This document shows positions 1 to 9,920 of a DNA stretch of 9,920 bases, in pieces. Each line of letters opens with the position of its first letter. Position 1 is the first letter of the stretch. The notes beneath the pieces were generated by a model. The model saw only the letters and a list, made by a program, of their open reading frames with translations. It did no database searches and was not told where the DNA came from. Origin of the DNA: a virus (taxonomy: Duplodnaviria > Heunggongvirae > Uroviricota > Caudoviricetes); the IMG/VR virus record IMGVR_UViG_2690316105_000015, positions 1 to 9,920 of that record, one strand, 5' to 3'. Made by a program: the position numbers and the translations under genes.

Positions 1-3000
1 CGCCTGCTGGTTCAGATACAGCGTAACGGTGGCTGGGTGACGGAAAAAGACATCACCATTAAGGGCAAAACCACCTCGCAGTATCTGGCCTCGGTGGTGG
101 TGGATAACCTGCCGCCGCGCCCGTTTAATATCCGGATGCGCAGAATGACGCCGGACAGCACCACAGACCAGCTGCAGAACAAAACGCTCTGGTCGTCATA
201 CACCGAAATCATCGATGTGAAACAGTGCTACCCGAACACGGCACTGGTCGGCGTACAGGTGGATTCGGAGCAGTTCGGCAGCCAGCAGGTGAGCCGTAAT
301 TATCATCTTCGCGGGCGCATTCTGCAGGTGCCGTCGAACTATAATCCGCAGACGCGGCAATACAGCGGTATCTGGGACGGAACGTTAAAACCGGCATACA
401 GCAACAACATGGCCTGGTGTCTGTGGGATATGCTGACCCATCCGCGCTATGGCATGGGGAAACGTCTTGGTGCGGCAGATGTGGATAAATGGGCGCTGTA
501 TGTCATCGGCCAGTACTGTGACCAGTCGGTGCCGGACGGCTTTGGCAGCACGGAGCCGCGCATCACCTGTAATGCCTGGCTGACCACACAGCGCAAGGCG
601 TGGGATGTGCTCAGTGATTTCTGCTCGGCGATGCGCTGTATGCCGGTATGGAACGGGCAGACGCTGACGTTCGTGCAGGACCGACCATCGGATAAGGTGT
701 GGACCTATAACCGCAGTAATGTGGTGATGCCGGATGATGGCGCGCCGTTCCGCTACAGTTTCAGCGCCCTGAAAGACCGCCATAATGCCGTTGAGGTGAA
801 CTGGATTGACCCGGATAACGGCTGGGAGACGGCGACAGAGCTTGTGGAGGATACGCAGGCCATTGTCCGTTACGGTCGTAACGTCACGAAGATGGATGCC
901 TTTGGCTGTACCAGCCGGGGGCAGGCACACCGCGCCGGGCTGTGGCTGATTAAAACGGAACTGCTGGAGACGCAGACCGTGGATTTCAGCGTGGGTGCTG
1001 AAGGGCTTCGTCATGTACCGGGCGATGTCATTGAAATCTGCGATGATGACTATGCCGGTATCCGCACCGGCGGGCGCGTGCTGGCGGTGAACAGCCAGAC
1101 CCGGACGCTGACGCTTGACCGTGAAATCACGCTGCCATCCTCCGGCACCACGCTGATAAGCCTGGTTGACGGGCAGGGGAATCCGGTCAGCGTGGAGGTC
1201 CAGTCCGTCACCGACGGCGTGAAGGTAAAAGTGAGCCGTGTTCCTGACGGTGTTGCTGAATACAGCGTGTGGGGGCTGAAGCTGCCGACGCTGCACCAGC
1301 GATTGTTCCGCTGCGTGAGTATCCGTGAGAACGACGACGGCACGTATGCCATCACCGCCGTGCAGCATGTGCCGGAAAAAGAAGCCATCGTGGATAACGG
1401 GGCGCACTTTGACGGCGACCAGAGCGGCACGGTGAATGGTGTCACGCCGCCAGCGGTGCAGCACCTGACTGCCGAAGTCACCGCAGACAGCGGGGAATAT
1501 CAGGTGCTGGCGCGCTGGGACACGCCGAAGGTGGTGAAGGGCGTGAGCTTCCTGCTCCGTCTGACCGTAACAGCGGATGACGGCAGTGAGCGGCTGGTCA
1601 GCACGGCCCGGACGACGGAAACCACTTACCGCTTCACACAACTGGCGCTGGGGAACTACAGGCTGACAGTCCGGGCAGTAAATGCGTGGGGGCAGCAGGG
1701 CGATCCGGCGTCGGTATCGTTCCGGATTGCCGCACCGGCAGCGCTGTCGCGGATTGAGCTGACGCCGGGCTATTTTCAGATAACCGCCACGCCGCATCTT
1801 GCGGTTTATGATCCGACGGTACAGTTTGAGTTCTGGTTCTCGGAAAAGCGGATTGCGGATATCAGGCAGGTTGAAACCACAGCACGCTATCTTGGCACGG
1901 CGCTGTACTGGATAGCCGCCAGTATCAATATCAAACCGGGCCATGATTATTACTTTTATATCCGCAGTGTGAACACCGTTGGCAAATCGGCATTCGTGGA
2001 GGCTGTTGGTCAGCCGAGTGATGATGCATCCGGTTATCTGGATTTTTTCAAAGGCGAGATAGGGAAAACCCATCTGGCTCAGGAGCTGTGGACGCAGATT
2101 GATAACGGTCAGCTTGCGCCTGACCTGGCTGAAATCAGGACGTCCATTACGGATGTCAGCAATGAAATCACGCAGACCGTCAATAAGAAACTGGAAGACC
2201 AGAGTGCGGCAATTCAGCAGATACAGAAGGTTCAGGTTGATACAAATAATAACCTGAACAGCATGTGGGCTGTGAAGCTGCAGCAGATGCAGGACGGACG
2301 CCTTTATATCGCGGGTATTGGTGCCGGTATTGAGAACACCCCTGACGGCATGCAGAGTCAGGTGCTGCTGGCGGCGGACAGGATTGCGATGGTTAATCCT
2401 GCGAATGGCAACACAAAACCGATGTTTGTTGGTCAGGGCGATCAGATATTCATGAACGACGTGTTCCTGAAACGCCTGACGGCCCCCACCATTACCAGCG
2501 GTGGAAATCCATCGGCATTTTCCCTGACTCCGGACGGAAAGCTGACCGCTAAAAATGCGGATATCAGTGGCAGTGTGAATGCGAACGCCGGGACGCTCAA
2601 CAATGTCACGGTAAATGAAAACTGTACGATTAAGGGCATGCTGGAGGCGACTCAGGTCAGAGGTGACTTCGTTAAAGCTGTATCCAAATCATTTCCGAAA
2701 CAGGCTGGTACGTGGGGTAACACGGAAACACCAAACGGGACGGTTACAGTCACCATAAGCGATGATCATAACTTTGACCGCCAGATTATTATTCCGCCCA
2801 TTATTTTTAACGGTATAGCGTATGACGATCCGGGGAGCGGAAATAACCCAGGAGGCACGCGATACACGGGTTATGGTTTTGAAGTTCGCAAAAACGGCGT
2901 ATTAATCGCATCCAGAGAAACTAAAGGTGCCATTCCCGGTAGTTACAGTGCAGTTATTGATATGCCTAGTGGTGGTGGTAGCGTCACTCTGGAGTTTAAG

Positions 3001-3093
3001 ATTTTCCAGAAAGGCAATCAGGGGGCAGGCAATATCACCGACTGTACGGTGATTGTGACCAAAAAAGCGGCTTCCGGCATCAGTATTCGTTGA
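1..3093 (+). CDS. J: Host specificity protein J (central tail fibre / tip attachment protein), 5'-partial; the reading frame is open from base 1, so the gene starts upstream of the window
   Basis: Frame 1 is open from position 1 to TGA at 3091-3093 (the ORF track lists the first in-frame Met at 37). The translation reads like lambda gpJ over most of its length as I remember it (e.g. [63 protein letters not shown], fibronectin-III-like segment around [22 protein letters not shown]). Gene order J-lom-stf-tfa matches lambda. Confidence 0.93.
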
Positions 3094-3163: not shown

Positions 3164-3763
3164 ATGCGTAAAGTTTGTGCAGCCATTTTGTCCGCAGCCA
3201 TTTGCCTGGCCGTATCCGGTGCGCCTGCATGGGCGTCTGAACATCAGTCCACGCTGAGCGCGGGGTATCTTCATGCCCGGACCAACGTTCCCGGCAGTGA
3301 TGATCTGAACGGGATTAACGTGAAATACCGTTATGAGTTTACGGACACACTGGGGCTGGTGACGTCATTCAGCTATGCAGGAGACAAGAATCGCCAGCTG
3401 ACCCGTTACAGCGATACCCGCTGGCATGAAGATTCCGTTCGTAACCGCTGGTTCAGCGTAATGGCGGGGCCGTCTGTGCGCGTGAATGAATGGTTCAGCG
3501 CGTATGCGATGGTGGGTGTGGCTTACAGCCGTGTGTCGACTTTCTCCGGGGATTATCTCCGCGTAACTGACAATAAGGGGAAAACGCACGATGTGCTGAC
3601 CGGAAGTGATGACGGTCGCCACAGCAACACGTCTCTGGCGTGGGGAGCTGGCGTGCAGTTTAACCCGACCGAATCCGTGGCCATTGATGTCGCTTATGAA
3701 GGCTCCGGCAGTGGTGACTGGCGCACTGACGGGTTCATCGTGGGTGTTGGTTATAAATTCTGA
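3164..3763 (+). CDS. lom: Outer membrane protein Lom (Ail/Lom family beta-barrel; prophage moron)
   Basis: 199-aa ORF with ATG at 3164 preceded by GAGAGG (3153-3158). N-terminal signal peptide MRKVCAAILSAAICLAVSGAPAWA. The protein reads as near-identical to lambda Lom as I recall it and ends in the typical outer-membrane beta-barrel C-terminus ...GFIVGVGYKF. Confidence 0.95.
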   Translation: MRKVCAAILSAAICLAVSGAPAWASEHQSTLSAGYLHARTNVPGSDDLNGINVKYRYEFTDTLGLVTSFSYAGDKNRQLTRYSDTRWHEDSVRNRWFSVMAGPSVRVNEWFSAYAMVGVAYSRVSTFSGDYLRVTDNKGKTHDVLTGSDDGRHSNTSLAWGAGVQFNPTESVAIDVAYEGSGSGDWRTDGFIVGVGYKF

Positions 3764-3789
3764 TTAGCCAGGTAACACAGTGTTATGAC

Positions 3790-3816
3790 AGCCCGCCGGT
3801 TCAGGCGGGCTTTTTT
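3790..3816 (+). terminator. Intrinsic terminator downstream of lom
   Basis: Stem AGCCCGCC (3790-3797) / GGCGGGCT (3804-3811), 6-nt loop GGTTCA, followed by a T run (3811-3816); lies between the lom stop and the stf start. Confidence 0.85.
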
Positions 3817-3827
3817 GTGGGGTGAAT

Positions 3828-6800
3828 ATGGCAGTAAAAATTTCAGGTGTACTGAAAGACGGCACAGGAAAACCGGTACAGAACTGCACAATCCAGCTGA
3901 AAGCAAAACGTAACAGCACCACGGTGGTGGTGAACACGCTGGCCTCAGAAAATCCGGATGAAGCCGGGCGTTACAGCATGGACGTTGAGTACGGTCAGTA
4001 CAGCGTTATTCTGTTGGTGGANNNNNNNNNNNNNATTTCAGGTGTACTGAAAGACGGCACAGGAAAACCGGTACAGAACTGCACAATCCAGCTGAAAGCA
4101 AAACGTAACAGTACCACGGTGGTGGTGAACACGCTGGCATCTGAAAATCCGGATGAAGCCGGGCGTTACAGTATGGACGTTGAGTACGGTCAGTACAGCG
4201 TTATTCTGTTGGTGGAAGGATTCCCGCCGTCACATGCCGGGACCATCACAGTGTATGAAGATTCCCGACCCGGTACGCTGAATGATTTTCTCGGTGCCAT
4301 GACGGAGGATGATGCCCGTCCGGAGGCACTGCGCCGTTTTGAGCTGATGGTGGAAGAGGTGGCGCGTAACGCGTCCGTGGTGGCACAGAACACGGCAGCC
4401 GCGAAGAAGTCAGCCAGTGATGCCAGCACATCAGCCCGTGAGGCGGCAACCCATGCGACTGATGCTGCAGGCTCAGCACGCGCAGCCAGCACGTCAGCCG
4501 GACAGGCCGCGTCGTCGGCTCAGTCAGCGACTTCCAGCGCAGGAACGGCATCAACAAAGGCCACTGAAGCATCAAAAAGTGCTGCCGCTGCAGAGTCCTC
4601 AAAAAGCGCGGCAGCTACCAGTGCCAGTGCCGCGAAAACGTCAGAAACGAATGCGGCAGCGTCACAACAATCAGCAGCCACTTCTGCATCCACCGCGACT
4701 ACGAAAGCGTCAGAAGCTGCCACCTCAGCCCGGGATGCGGCGGCTTCAAAAGAGGCGGCAAAATCATCAGAAACGAACGCATCCTCGAGCGCCAGTAGCG
4801 CAGCTTCCTCGGCAACAGCGGCAGGAAATTCCGCGAAGGCGGCAAAAACGTCAGAGACGAACGCCAGGTCTTCTGAAACGGCAGCGGGACAGAGCGCCTC
4901 GGCTGCGGCAGGCTCAAAAACAGCGGCTGCGTCGTCTGCCAGTGCAGCGTCAACAAGTGCCGGGCAGGCCTCAGCCAGTGCCACCGCCGCCGGAAAATCG
5001 GCAGAAAGCGCCGCATCGTCTGCTTCAACAGCCACAACGAAGGCTGGCGAAGCCACTGAACAGGCCAGCGCAGCAGCGAGGTCTGCTTCCGCAGCGAAGA
5101 CATCCGAAACGAACGCGAAAGCGTCGGAAACCAGCGCAGAATCCTCAAAAACGGCTGCCGCATCGTCCGCCAGTTCGGCGGCGTCATCGGCATCATCTGC
5201 GTCTGCTTCAAAAGATGAGGCGACCAGACAAGCGTCAGCAGCGAAGAGCAGCGCCACGACGGCATCCACGAAGGCGACAGAGGCAGCTGGCAGTGCGACG
5301 GCGGCAGCTCAGAGCAAAAGTACGGCGGAATCCGCGGCAACGCGCGCCGAGACAGCAGCTAAACGGGCAGAGGATATTGCATCCGCCGTGGCGCTTGAGG
5401 ATGCAAGTACGACGAAAAAGGGGATAGTACAGCTCAGCAGTGCGACCAACAGCACATCTGAAACGCTTGCCGCGACACCGAAGGCAGTTAAAGCAGCGAA
5501 TGACAATGCGAATGGCAGGGTACCATCTAACCGAAAAGTTAACGGGAAAGCACTGACTGCGGATATAACATTAACACCGAAAGATATTGGCACTTTAAAT
5601 TCAGTAACGATCTCTTTCTCTGGCGGGGCAGGGTGGTTCAAACTGGCAACGGTTACCATGCCACAAGCGAGTTCCATCGTTTACATCGCATTGATTGGTG
5701 GCGCTGGTTACAACGTCGGCTCCCCACATCAGGCAGGCATTTCAGAACTGGTTCTACGAGCAGGCAATGGAAACCCCAAAGGGATTACCGGAGCTTTGTG
5801 GAAGCGTACAGCCGTCGGATTAACGAATTTCGCCTGGATCAACACATCCGGCGATACATATGATATTTACGTTGAGATTGGCAATTATGCGACGAGTGTA
5901 AATATCCATTGGGATTGTACTACAAATGCGTCAGTTTCTATTTATACCTCGCCAACATATTCAGCGAGTAAGCCTTCCAGCGTTACCGGTGGTGTTGTTT
6001 ATACGATGTATAGCTCACATCAGAAACCTACACCATCAGATATTGGAGCGCTGCCAACGACTGGAGGGACTATTTCAGGTCCGTTGTCTGTTACTGATGG
6101 GATCACCGGGGCACTGAAGGGGAACGCCGATACCGCGACGAAACTTGCGGCAGCCCCAAAAATTAACGGTGTTAAGTTTGATGGCTCGGCGGATATTAAC
6201 CTCACGCCGGAAAATATTGGTGCATTTGCCCGACGTTCGACGGGGGCTTATGCGGATTCGGATGGAGCCGTTCCCTGGAATGCCGAATCAGGCGCTTACA
6301 ATGTCACCCGCTCTGGCAACAGCTATATTCTGGTTAACTTCTATACCGGAGTCGGAAGTTGCCGGACCTTGCAGATGAAGGCACATTACAGAAATGGAGG
6401 TCTGTTCTACCGTTCCTCAAGAGATGGCTATGGTTTTGAGGAAGACTGGGCAGAAGTTTATACCTCGAAAAATCTTCCACCAGAAAGCTACCCAGTCGGC
6501 GCACCAATCCCGTGGCCATCAGATACCGTTCCGTCTGGTTATGCCCTGATGCAGGGGCAGACTTTTGACAAATCTGCTTACCCGAAACTTGCAGCCGCTT
6601 ATCCGTCAGGTGTGATCCCTGATATGCGTGGCTGGACGATTAAGGGCAAACCTGCCAGTGGTCGGGCCGTATTGTCTCAGGAACAGGACGGCATTAAATC
6701 GCACACCCACAGCGCCAGCGTATCCAGTACGGATTTGGGGACGAAAAACACATCGTCGTTTGATTACGGAACCAAATCCACGAATAACACCGGGGCGCAT

Positions 6801-7181
6801 ACCCATAGTATTAGCGGGACTGCAAATAGTGCCGGTGCGCACCAACACAAGAGTTCCGGTGCATTTGGTGGCACGAACACGAGCATTTTCCCTAATGGTT
6901 ATACCGCGATTTCAAATCTAAGCGCGGGGATTATGAGCACAACAAGCGGTAGTGGCCAGACTCGTAATGCAGGGAAGACATCATCAGATGGTGCTCATAC
7001 CCACTCGCTGTCCGGCACTGCTGCAAGCGCAGGCGCACATGCACATACTGTCGGTATTGGTGCTCATACGCACTCCGTTGCGATTGGCTCACATGGACAC
7101 ACCATCACCGTTAACGCTGCTGGTAACGCGGAAAACACCGTCAAAAACATCGCATTTAACTATATTGTGAGGCTTGCATAA
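3828..7181 (+). CDS. stf: Side tail fibre protein Stf; the reading frame passes through a 13-N gap (4022-4034) and a duplicated 182-bp segment, so the true length is probably 65 codons shorter
   Basis: ATG at 3828 (the ORF track starts at an upstream GTG, 3822), stop TAA 7179-7181. Conserved N-terminus [26 protein letters not shown], long Ala/Ser/Thr-rich fibrous repeat region, and a C-terminus ...[22 protein letters not shown] that matches lambda Stf from memory. His-x-His repeats near the C-terminus. Confidence 0.88.
3840..4216 (+). repeat. Direct tandem duplication of 182 bp (copy 1 3840-4021, copy 2 4035-4216) separated by a 13-N assembly gap (4022-4034)
   Basis: The two copies align base-for-base at an offset of 195 nt, with 4 differences (3917 C/T, 3944 C/A, 3947 A/T, 3977 C/T). 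All four fall on third codon positions and are synonymous in the stf frame. Confidence 0.9.
4370..5420 (+). repeat. Low-complexity Ala/Ser/Thr-rich coding repeat region inside stf, with a recurring K-T/S-S-E-T-N-A unit
   Basis: Repeated nucleotide units such as gcgaaaacgtcagaaacgaatgcg (about 4625), gcaaaatcatcagaaacgaacgca (about 4757), gcaaaaacgtcagagacgaacgcc (about 4845) and gcgaagacatccgaaacgaacgcg (about 5094). This region also generates long spurious ORFs in other frames on both strands. Confidence 0.8.
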
Positions 7182-7765
7182 TGGTATTCAGAATGAGTGA
7201 ACAACCACGGACCATAACAATTTATAATCTGCTGGCCGGAACTAATGAATTTATTGGTGAAGGTGATGCATATATTCCGCCTCATACAGGTCTGCCAGCA
7301 AACAGTACCGATATTGCACCGCCAGATATTCCGGCAGGCTTCGTGGCTGTTTTCAACAGTGATGAGGCATCGTGGCATCTCGTTGAAGATCATCGGGGTA
7401 AAACGGTTTATGACGTGGCTTCCGGCGACGCGTTATTTATTTCTGAACTCGGTCCGTTACCGGAAAATGTTACCTGGTTATCGCCGGAAGGGGAGTTTCA
7501 GAAGTGGAACGGCACAGCCTGGGTGAAGGATACGGAAGCAGAAAAACTGTTCCGGATCCGGGAGGCGGAAGAAACAAAAAACAACCTGATGCAGGTAGCC
7601 AGTGAGCATATTGCGCCGCTTCAGGATGCTGCAGATCTGGAAATCGCAACGGAGGAAGAAACCTCGTTGCTTGAAGCCTGGAAGAAGTATCGAGTGTTGC
7701 TGAATCGTGTTGATACATCAACTGCACCTGATATTGAGTGGCCTACAGTACCTGTTATGGAATAA
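7181..7765 (+). CDS. tfa: Tail fibre assembly protein Tfa (chaperone for Stf)
   Basis: ATG at 7181 overlaps the stf stop by 1 nt (taATGg), indicating translational coupling. The 194-aa product [54 protein letters not shown]... reads like lambda Tfa as I remember it. Stop TAA at 7763-7765. Confidence 0.95.
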
Positions 7766-7822
7766 TCGTTACTGCTGTAGCCATAATAACGTCATATACA
7801 AGAGCTTGCTGGACTACGAAGA

Positions 7823-8030
7823 ATGCGCGCTGATTTTGAAGATAAAATCAGTGGTACAAAGTCCGAAAGGCCTGGGCTGAAAAAACTACTCAGAATATTA
7901 TCGGCAGGTGACACACTGATTGTCTGAAAGCTGGACTGACTGGGGGCGTTTTTTCTTCCATGTTATGGGGCTCAGGCCGAAATGGAACGTGGACTGACTG
8001 TTAAGAGAACAATAGTCGGGTTTTGAGGCT
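7823..8030 (+). pseudogene. Remnant of a Pin/Gin/Hin-family serine DNA invertase: truncated, with in-frame stops, an internal deletion and a frameshift
   Basis: Translation from 7823 gives MRADFEDKISGTKSERPGLKKLLRILSAGDTLIV*KLD*LG, matching the conserved invertase core ...FEDKxSGTxxDRPGLKxxLxxLxxGDTLVVWKLDRLG. The expected Trp and Arg codons are TGA here (7925-7927 and 7937-7939). A further fragment RFFFHVMG / AQAEMERGLTVKRTIVGF follows in shifted frames and corresponds to RFFFHVMGALAEMERELIIERT. The N-terminal catalytic-serine segment and the C-terminal HTH domain are absent. Confidence 0.7.
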
Positions 8031-8153
8031 GCGAGATTACATAGAGTTAATTGGTTGGTTAATAGGGTATAGAGGTTATCCAACTATTCGTTACGACATA
8101 TATTGTTGTTACCTACAAGTTATGAAAAATATATGATTTTATTAATCTTTTGT

Positions 8154-8192
8154 ATGTGCAGATTAATACTTAATACGCATCAATCTGCACAT
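8154..8192. terminator. Perfect 11-bp inverted repeat (hairpin) between the convergent prophage genes and the RT-TIR gene; possible bidirectional terminator
   Basis: ATGTGCAGATT (8154-8164) and its exact reverse complement AATCTGCACAT (8182-8192), 17-nt loop. Followed on the + strand by the T-rich TTGCTTTTG, and lies 18 nt downstream of the RT-TIR stop codon on the - strand. The loop is long for a classical intrinsic terminator. Confidence 0.35.
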
Positions 8193-8209
8193 TTGCTTTT
8201 GTGAGAGAA

Positions 8210-9844
8210 TTATCGTTGTAAGAGTGATTTAATATTGTTGGCGACTACTTCAGGATTATTATCATAGACCATATAAAGCTTATCACTAAGTAAAGGTAAT
8301 GATAGGTTTACGACCTCCTCGTCTTCTTTTTTTAATAAGGTCAAAAGTTTTACGTCGCCACTCGATATTTCGCTGGCTAAAACTGCTCTTAATTCTTTTT
8401 GAGGCCATTCCTTATTGACTGAATTAGCAGATAAAATAGCGATGACATATTTTGATTTAACTAGTGCTGCATTTATTTTCTCAATTAAGGAGTCGCCCCA
8501 TTTTATCTCAACATGATCTATGAAGGCTGAAATTTTAAGTTTAGTTAACTCGTCATATATTGGAATTGCAATGTCTTTTTTGTCTTCGCTTGCATGGCAT
8601 ATAAAAACATCAAAGTTTTCTGTTTCTTTCATTGCTCGCAATCCTTCTTGGGTTTTTAATGGATCGTTATGACTCATGTATGACATCAGTTTTAAATATC
8701 CTGGATAGTCTTTCCCTCTAACCATTTTTATAAAGCTAAGCCTTCCATAAATATGATTTCGGAAAATTTGAATTGCGTGGTTATTATCCTTTGCCTGATA
8801 TCCTTTTTCTGTAGCAAAGAGAAGTGCATACTTTAGCTTATCATCTGTCCATCTATGAATCATTGAACGTGTAATTCTTATATATCTTCTGTTAATGTTA
8901 ACTTTATCATTAACCACTAAGCCAGTAACACTTTGTCTTGTATTTCTGGTTTGAACTCTAAACTTATCATAATTTATTTTAAAGCCATTTTTTGAAATAA
9001 TATTGTCTATAGTTTCACTAAGACTATAACTTCCGTCATCGTTTTTTTTGATTATATCAATATTTCTCTGATTGAAAGAAAAAGTTATGTCGTCAGCATA
9101 CCTAGAATAAGATATTTTTTTTCTTCCTGCAAATTGGGTGAGCTGTTTGTCTAGAGAAGCTGATGCAATATTTGCTAATATTGGCGATGTACACGCACCT
9201 TGAGGTAATTTTCCATTGTGAGTACATAACTGAGCTAAAACAGTAGCTGCTGGATGAGCAAAATTAAAAGGTTTACTTTTAAATATTCCATAAACCCTGG
9301 CAAAACTTATTGATTCGAAATAGTTTTCTAGGTCAATGTTTACGACAAAATTTTTTTTAATATGCATCCCAGCATTAGTAATGATGCTCTTTCCTTTTAT
9401 AAAACCATGAGCAGATTTCTTTGGCCTGTAGAAATATTCAAGAACGGGCTTTAGTCTCGTTTGGAGTATCGATAGACCGCCACAAGGAGCATTAATGACT
9501 CTTTTTTTACCATTCTTCTTTTCTATTTCAAAAGTACGATAATTATCTTTTTTACGATATAGTATATAAAGTAATTGGCCAGCAGGAACTCCAAGTAAAT
9601 TGGCAATATCACTTACTGATGTTATAGCAATTTCCCCTGACTCAATCAATATACATATTTTAATCAGGTTATCAGGGGGAGTAACTTCAGTGCTAGTAAG
9701 TGTGTGGTTTATCCATTTAATTTTATGTCCATTGCTGTATGGTTTAGGTTCAATTTGAGGAAGTTCAGATATGAAGTCAGGGCTTTTTTTATTGGCTAAT
9801 GCGAAGTTATGCATTAATAATTTATCATGTAGCGACAAAACCAA
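8210..9844 (-). CDS. Retron-type reverse transcriptase fused to a C-terminal TIR domain (RT-TIR; candidate anti-phage defence effector). The true start is probably the TTG at 9838-9836 or the ATG at 9814-9812 rather than the TTG at 9844
   Basis: 544-codon ORF in AT-rich DNA. RT motifs in the expected order: AHGF, NAGMH (NAxxH), VNIDLENYFESI, LPQGACTSPILANI, YADD (codons at 9089-9100, catalytic motif C) and QSVTGLVVNDKVN (the VTG motif typical of retron RTs). C-terminal region about aa 411-500 (about 8345-8614): FDVFICHASEDKKDIAIPIYDEL...YVIAILSANSVNKEWPQKELRAVL, a typical bacterial TIR signature including the conserved Glu (E484, codon 8393-8395). AGGAG at 9849-9845 gives a 6-nt spacing to the TTG at 9838. 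Confidence 0.88.
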   Translation of the reverse strand: MVLSLHDKLLMHNFALANKKSPDFISELPQIEPKPYSNGHKIKWINHTLTSTEVTPPDNLIKICILIESGEIAITSVSDIANLLGVPAGQLLYILYRKKDNYRTFEIEKKNGKKRVINAPCGGLSILQTRLKPVLEYFYRPKKSAHGFIKGKSIITNAGMHIKKNFVVNIDLENYFESISFARVYGIFKSKPFNFAHPAATVLAQLCTHNGKLPQGACTSPILANIASASLDKQLTQFAGRKKISYSRYADDITFSFNQRNIDIIKKNDDGSYSLSETIDNIISKNGFKINYDKFRVQTRNTRQSVTGLVVNDKVNINRRYIRITRSMIHRWTDDKLKYALLFATEKGYQAKDNNHAIQIFRNHIYGRLSFIKMVRGKDYPGYLKLMSYMSHNDPLKTQEGLRAMKETENFDVFICHASEDKKDIAIPIYDELTKLKISAFIDHVEIKWGDSLIEKINAALVKSKYVIAILSANSVNKEWPQKELRAVLASEISSGDVKLLTLLKKEDEEVVNLSLPLLSDKLYMVYDNNPEVVANNIKSLLQR

Positions 9845-9920
9845 CTCCTATCGGATTGTAGGTAATGACTCCAACTTATTGATAGTGTTTTATGTTCAGA
9901 TAATGCCCGATGACTTTGTC

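Follow-up and report, generated by a model that had tools for sequence, protein, structure and literature searches.

The 9,920-nt stretch of DNA analysed here (the window) comes from E. coli and makes up the right arm of a lambda-like prophage; on sequence comparison, its positions 7808-8036 (plus strand) are the decayed remnant of a serine DNA invertase gene of the e14 Pin/Mu Gin type (Din family). This remnant is very probably an inert pseudogene that decayed long ago and persists as a relic along the left border of a cargo slot. Since the prophage contains neither crossover sites nor an inverted fibre cassette, an invertase would find no substrate here.

Gene order and identity of the remnant

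The plus strand of the window carries the lambda-like right-arm genes J (37-3093), lom (3164-3763) and stf (3822-7181), and then tfa (7181-7765), the tail fibre assembly gene directly 5' of the remnant (Pfam Caudo_TAP, E=2.4e-44; tail fiber assembly protein in RefSeq). A spacer of only 42 nt (7766-7807) separates the tfa stop from the start of the invertase homology. Past the remnant, 8037-8209 is the first part of the retron-specific cargo DNA, which lacks invertase homology and matches only retron-bearing loci. The cargo gene adjoining the remnant lies on the minus strand and encodes a type XII retron RT-TIR fusion (8210-9814; Pfam, PADLOC and RefSeq), and the window closes with the end of an IS1 element (9861-9920), 46 nt upstream of the RT start codon.

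E. coli 4/1-1 carries a 100% identical stretch, in a prophage that adjoins prfC. The order annotated there by RefSeq is tfa, a recombinase family pseudogene, a TIR anti-phage reverse transcriptase, a dinI-like gene and prfC. At the 5' end of stf, a run of 13 Ns (4022-4034) sits between copies of a 182-nt block with 98% identity (window 3840-4216), and this run and duplication inflate the stf ORF to 1119 codons (1023 in strain 4/1-1). Neither looks biological; a gap in scaffolding or assembly is the likelier origin of both.

At the protein level, frame 1 (counted from 7766) reads ...ADFEDKISGTKSERPGLKKLLRILSAGDTLIV*KLD*LG, followed by GRFFFHVMG in frame 2, AQAEMERGLTVKRTIVGF in frame 1 and FEAARLH in frame 2. 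For the searches, we stitched these pieces into one peptide and read the two stops as W and R. The stitched translation matched the Pfam Resolvase family (PF00239) with E=2.9e-17, at profile positions 24-82 of 145 only, a match that speaks for descent from the invertase family and not for function. Among solved structures in the PDB, Gin was the best match (E=6e-26), with its residues 30-68 and 99-131 aligned; gamma-delta/Tn3 resolvases gave E values of about 1e-6.

The nearest sequence relative is pinE, with 84-86% nucleotide identity over segment A of the remnant (7808-7942, invertase codons ~22-66) and 79-80% over segment B (7943-8036, codons 100-131, GRFFFHVMG..AEMER..), which is 78-80% identical to each of the intact invertases tested. 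In the codon alignment with intact pinE, about 77 of its 184 codons are represented. RefSeq (PGAP) already labels window 7796-8026 as a frameshifted pseudogene of a "recombinase family protein". Thus, the identity of the remnant as an invertase pseudogene was already known from public annotation, and the object itself is an ordinary one.

Lesions in the remnant

We mapped the lesions by nucleotide alignment with intact pinE genes (loci L006 and L007) and with other lambdoid copies; all of them are given on the plus strand. The most upstream is a -1 frameshift at 7834-7837, where the intact genes have five T and the remnant four. Two nonsense codons, placed by codon alignment and by the match to Gin, lie further on: a TGA at 7925-7927 replaces a conserved Trp (pinE/Gin W61, TGG>TGA), and a TGA at 7937-7939 replaces a conserved Arg (pinE/Gin R65, CGG>TGA, two base changes). 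Gin R65 aligns with R68 of gamma-delta resolvase, which is an active-site arginine of that enzyme. The junction of a net 101-nt deletion, comprising codons 67-99 and 2 nt of codon 100, is at 7942/7943. Within segment B, alignment with the intact genes revealed a second -1 frameshift at 7967-7970 (four G instead of five) and a +1 insertion at about 8021 (GGGTTTTGAGG instead of GGA-CTGGAGG). This insertion creates the frame-1 TGA at 8024-8026 with which the RefSeq pseudogene annotation ends.

Both breakpoints of the deletion correspond, in the intact genes, to copies of an 8-nt direct repeat, TGGGGCGT, at codons 66-68 and 100-102. A clean deletion mediated by this repeat would remove 102 nt; the window has a single G in excess of that outcome, and the event may be read as such a 102-nt loss plus one extra G.

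Both ends of the gene are gone as well. Codons 1-21 have no detectable homology in the window, every phage invertase match starting at 7808, and the catalytic-serine N-terminal motif (YVRVS-T; S9 in Gin, S10 in gamma-delta resolvase) is absent. On the other side, invertase homology stops at about 8036, which is pinE codon ~131 of 184, and the HTH_7 domain (PF02796) had no match in the remnant, while both control genes, the pinE of L007 and its counterpart in L002, matched. The remnant is unable to encode a recombinase because it lacks codons 1-21 and the HTH domain and carries frameshifts, two TGA codons and the 101-nt deletion.

Two other readings of these data were tried and rejected. A diverged N-terminus in 7766-7807, where frame 2 reads RYCCSHNNV (compare GYVRVSTND), did not extend the Pfam match, and the DNA there has no similarity to any invertase 5' end. 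Programmed read-through or selenocysteine insertion at the TGA codons is ruled out by the frameshifts, the deletion and the missing termini.

An earlier note on this DNA had described a Pin/Gin-type invertase pseudogene with nonsense codons at a conserved Trp and a conserved Arg and without its HTH domain. All of this was borne out, and the translated similarity to invertases is significant, far beyond chance. The note had also reported that about 35 codons were lost before a frameshifted segment: the frameshift is there, and the size needs correction to 101 nt, or about 33.7 codons. The lesions it named are real and its list was incomplete, since it missed the loss of codons 1-21 and the three 1-nt frameshifts.

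Crossover sites and tail-fibre orientation

For the crossover sites, we scanned the window with a 26-bp consensus (TTNTCNNAAACCNNGGTTTNNGANAA, 18 specified bases) and found no Din-family site of the gix/pix type at ≤3 mismatches. The best candidate, inside gene J, has 5 mismatches among the 18 specified bases. As controls, each of the intact pinE loci L006 and L007 returned two sites and shuffled sequence returned none. The gix/hix-like repeats that the earlier note had considered near stf-tfa are likewise absent from the window at this threshold, and there are no long inverted repeats in 3700-8210.

In the intact pinE loci, the two crossover sites flank an inverted tfa'/fibre' cassette. An invertase beside tfa/tfa' and fibre' genes of opposite orientation is seen there and also in prophages of the P2-like and Mu-like types. 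The window has no inverted alternative fibre cassette, because only 42 nt lie between tfa and the remnant.

Tail-fibre specificity is fixed in this prophage, as the earlier note had proposed from the decay of the invertase. Its second step, that the lesions it listed are what fixed the specificity, did not stand. The switch was lost before the stops and the deletion arose, because the catalytic-serine region is missing in all the lambdoid copies examined; the listed lesions are later decay and not the cause.

Lambdoid relatives and a crossover inside the remnant

We examined the lambdoid copies of ETEC1730 (L002), ETEC4088 (L004), JJ1886 (L005) and Ec-042 (L008). Every one of them presents the same junction as the window: the tfa stop, the 42-nt spacer and pin from codon ~22. 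The T-run frameshift at 7834-7837 is also common to all the lambdoid copies examined, with alignments covering L002, L004 and L008. PGAP labels the sister lambdoid copies "missing N-terminus", and one copy with the same 5' truncation has an otherwise open frame. Around the junction, 7750-7812 (62-63 nt, including the spacer) is 100% identical to ETEC1730, 92% to Ec-042 and 85% to ETEC4088 and JJ1886. The spacer itself has no match in any intact invertase locus and matches only lambdoid tfa-pin junctions.

The 3' breakpoint of pin varies, from codon ~96 in ETEC4088 and codon ~131 in the window to the full 3' end in ETEC1730 and Ec-042. The 5' truncation probably came first, since it is common to all the lambdoid copies examined, including those beside other cargo. 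The stops, the internal deletion and the 3' truncation would have come later, in the retron-linked lineage.

Divergence patterns differ sharply between the 5' part of the remnant (to 7918) and the 3' part (from 7919). Against pinE, codons 31-58 have eight synonymous differences and one non-synonymous, whereas from codon 59 on there are two stops, two frameshifts and about 7 non-synonymous and 8 synonymous codon differences. The block covered by the 3' part is 97-99% conserved when intact genes are compared, yet the remnant shows 20-27% private divergence there. On its face, the 8:1 synonymous excess in codons 31-58 resembles purifying selection and counts against the long-decay reading; it is explained if these differences had already accumulated, between alleles that still worked, by the time of the truncation. 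The remnant may also be a mosaic of two histories and not one gene decaying in place.

For the ETEC1730 copy, identity to the window is 100% from 7740 to 7918. From 7919 on, 644 of 647 positions match the pinE-SIR2 region in UMNK88's Mu-like prophage. The copy is of window type at all informative sites as far as 7896, and one clean switch separates 7896 from the informative site 7919. By this pattern, the ETEC1730 gene is a homologous recombinant formed inside the remnant, which shows that the relic is usable as a recombination substrate between unrelated prophages.

The hybrid gene itself (L002 6031-6534; crossover at window-equivalent 7897-7918) joins the lambdoid 5'-truncated pin to the 3' part of the Mu-like prophage pinE and is followed by the SIR2 gene of that prophage. 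It lacks the catalytic serine and starts at a non-standard ATA codon, and PGAP annotates it as a non-pseudo 'recombinase family protein' of 167 aa.

Variable cargo downstream of the remnant

The remnant marks the left edge of a variable cargo slot that runs from tfa to the dinI-like gene. After the common tfa-pin junction, this slot contains the RT-TIR retron in the window, a SIR2-family gene in ETEC1730, rnlA-rnlB in ETEC4088 and JJ1886, and hypothetical genes in Ec-042. In other prophages at prfC, it holds Panacea-domain and DUF4760 genes, an intact PinR-like gene with ydfK, or cdtABC. Comparison with homologous prophages, which have the 5' truncation in common and differ in cargo, agrees with the earlier note that the retron was placed into a gene order which the remnant still marks: the same tfa/spacer/truncated-pin junction occurs with other cargo in related prophages.

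About 1,800 records have the dinI-like gene, and homology resumes at ~14493 of the strain 4/1-1 locus (L001). The retron-specific insert measures ~2.15 kb, with its left boundary at 8036/8037 and its right end in the 3'-terminal part of the dinI-like ORF. This ORF measures 261 nt with the retron (strain 4/1-1) and 249 nt in retron-free prophages.

The module of tfa 3' end, pin remnant, RT-TIR and dinI stays beside prfC while the DNA upstream varies, as seen in C21 (L003), SC516 (L012) and Z1323HEC0475 (L013). In one of these three, the fibre gene is a different one that encodes an S74 endopeptidase domain; another carries a cif effector gene together with tfa fragments, the cif gene lying upstream of the tfa 3' fragment. 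C21 has lost most of its prophage in a deletion that took the tfa 3' end too, and early-region genes abut the pin remnant.

Retron and IS1 element

The RT-TIR protein matched Pfam RVT_1 (E=3e-19), TIR_2 in its C-terminal part (E=1.2e-18) and the PADLOC model RT-TIR_XII (E=6.5e-188); its RefSeq name is 'TIR domain-containing anti-phage reverse transcriptase'. Type XII retrons, defined by the fusion of an RT to TIR_2, reportedly defend against phage (PMC7736814).

The IS1 end at 9861-9920 (GGTAATGACTCCAACTTATTGATAG...) is matched at 100% by IS1 copies in thousands of records, and it is at 9860/9861 that the window departs from 4/1-1, a genome without the IS. Projected onto 4/1-1, the insertion point is 8 nt away from the a2 repeat predicted for the retron ncRNA, and the RT start codon lies 46 nt downstream of it. 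In the window, the IS1 end takes the place of the predicted ncRNA region from 9861 on. RT-TIR is thereby cut off from its predicted msr-msd and promoter, and the retron may be inactive in the strain of the window.

In 4/1-1, the predicted ncRNA region (L001 14116-14493) contains a 9-nt inverted repeat, GGCAGAGCC (14295-14303) and GGCTCTGCC (14170-14178), which closes a long stem in the minimum-free-energy fold. An Rfam scan from the remnant to the dinI region of 4/1-1 gave chance-level matches only, with no family for the predicted ncRNA.

A near-perfect hairpin at 8154-8192 (19-nt arms, 84% complementary, 1-nt loop) lies 18 nt past the RT-TIR stop, where tfa and the remnant converge with the RT gene. 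It is a possible terminator that the terminator scan did not call, as it lacks a T tract. The promoter and terminator scan of 7600-8300 found nothing above shuffled expectation.

Discussion

In the history that we favour, an ancestral lambdoid pin would first have lost codons 1-21, including the catalytic serine. The stops, the internal deletion and the 3' truncation at codon ~131 would have followed in the retron-linked lineage, an order suggested by the comparison of copies, and the remnant would then have persisted as a relic beside the slot that holds the type XII RT-TIR retron. Its only present-day role would be to offer passive homology for recombination.

If the stops and frameshifts were sequencing or assembly errors, the invertase gene would be otherwise intact, and the window does have a real assembly artefact elsewhere (the N run at 4022-4034 and the duplicated 182-nt block). 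However, the lesions are not sequencing errors, because in five other complete genomes the stops, frameshifts and deletion junction recur without a single base difference. These genomes come from several hosts on different continents: human (Sweden, China), pig (Hong Kong), chicken (China) and human (South Korea). The same genomes exclude the sequencing errors that the earlier note had named as a way in which it could be wrong. Moreover, the remnant and its downstream junction are present in 82 records at ≥98% identity, and base-calling cannot produce a 101-nt deletion or the loss of 21 N-terminal and 53 C-terminal codons. We give error practically no weight. A retained function is highly improbable as well, be it as a cis element (Fis enhancer), as a transcriptional insulator separating tfa from the convergent RT gene or as a short peptide (ATG 7823 to TGA 7927, 34 codons). 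The Fis-bound recombinational enhancer of Din invertase genes such as Gin and Hin lies within their 5' coding part, and the region that matches its position, codons 22-66, is retained in the remnant. Such an enhancer, if present, would be irrelevant without crossover sites, and it has no role without an invertase. Retention with few changes in the 82 records would also fit a function, but identity among the copies is as expected from recent common descent and the flanking non-coding DNA is equally conserved; promoter-like and terminator-like signals do not exceed shuffled expectation.

The two divergence patterns also raise an import of the 3' half. Under this explanation, 7919-8036 arrived with the retron from another element and was joined to a younger lambdoid 5' pin fragment by recombination within pin homology, and the '101-nt deletion' or the 7919 boundary would be a recombination scar. 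The sharp contrast across 7919 speaks for it: 7835-7918 has 8 synonymous and 1 non-synonymous differences and is 100% identical to ETEC1730, whereas 7919-8036 has 2 stops, ~7 non-synonymous codons and 20-27% private divergence. The 3' half is always found linked to the retron, and ETEC1730 presents a real crossover in this very stretch. On the other hand, the copies of Ec-042 and ETEC4088 run past codon 59, so that a longer pin remnant existed at this place independently of the retron. A scan of one genome per species with the RT-TIR protein found no donor with a related invertase beside RT-TIR, and gave only distant TIR-domain matches in unrelated metagenome-assembled genomes. We consider this import unlikely; decay in place of a lambdoid pin, truncated at its 5' end before the other lesions, would be the likelier origin of the 3' part.

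The remnant alone matters little, as a correctly recognised pseudogene that NCBI's pipeline had already annotated. Its practical value is that of a landmark for the left boundary of the retron-specific insert. In lambda-like prophages at prfC, the tfa-dinI slot carries different defence or toxin genes depending on the strain. Variable effector or moron loci beside lambdoid tail-fibre genes are well known, and no paper found in our literature search describes this junction, with an invertase remnant at the border of a lambdoid tail-fibre defence hotspot.

The ETEC1730 crossover is a small, concrete example of relic genes mediating mosaicism across phage families. The pin block is common to lambda-like, Mu-like, P2-like and e14-like prophages and lies precisely where the tail-fibre module meets the cargo slot. 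It is possible, though doubtful, that the pin remnant serves as a recombination anchor, at which homologous crossovers may let phage families exchange cargo (for defence or virulence) or tail-fibre modules.

Known invertases and invertase pseudogenes

Like the remnant, Pin (pinE) of e14 and its Mu-like and P2-like relatives lie just downstream of tail-fibre and tfa genes. Intact pinE has 184 codons, a catalytic-serine N-terminus and HTH_7, none of which the remnant has. In addition, pinE adjoins an invertible segment of ~1.6 kb with two 26-bp crossover sites and inverted tfa'/fibre' genes, whereas the window has nothing of the kind. For Gin of phage Mu (PDB 3UJ3, 4M6F), the motifs VVWKLDRLGR and GRFFFHVMGALAEMERE are recognisable in the remnant, but Gin residues 1-29, 69-98 and 132-193 have no counterpart there, and W61 and R65 are stop codons. 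The traits of a functional Din invertase –an uninterrupted frame of ~184-193 codons, the catalytic Ser motif, the active-site Arg and HTH_7– are all absent from the remnant.

The e14 P segment is also a substrate, in trans, for PinQ and PinR, which the Qin and Rac prophages encode (PMC12529663). They are serine invertases beside lambdoid tail-fibre genes, and an intact PinR-like gene fills the same slot in an O145 prophage at prfC. However, PinQ and PinR are intact, 196 aa long, encoded on the strand opposite to tfa and of a different subfamily, whereas the remnant is pinE-like, on the tfa strand and dead.

Invertase pseudogenes exist in E. coli prophages, for instance pinH of K-12. Pseudogenes of the K-12 pinH type and those that RefSeq annotates after tfa as 'recombinase family protein' are the same kind of object as the remnant. 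Compared with other prophage invertase pseudogenes, the lineage of the window has its private set of lesions and its link to the RT-TIR retron.
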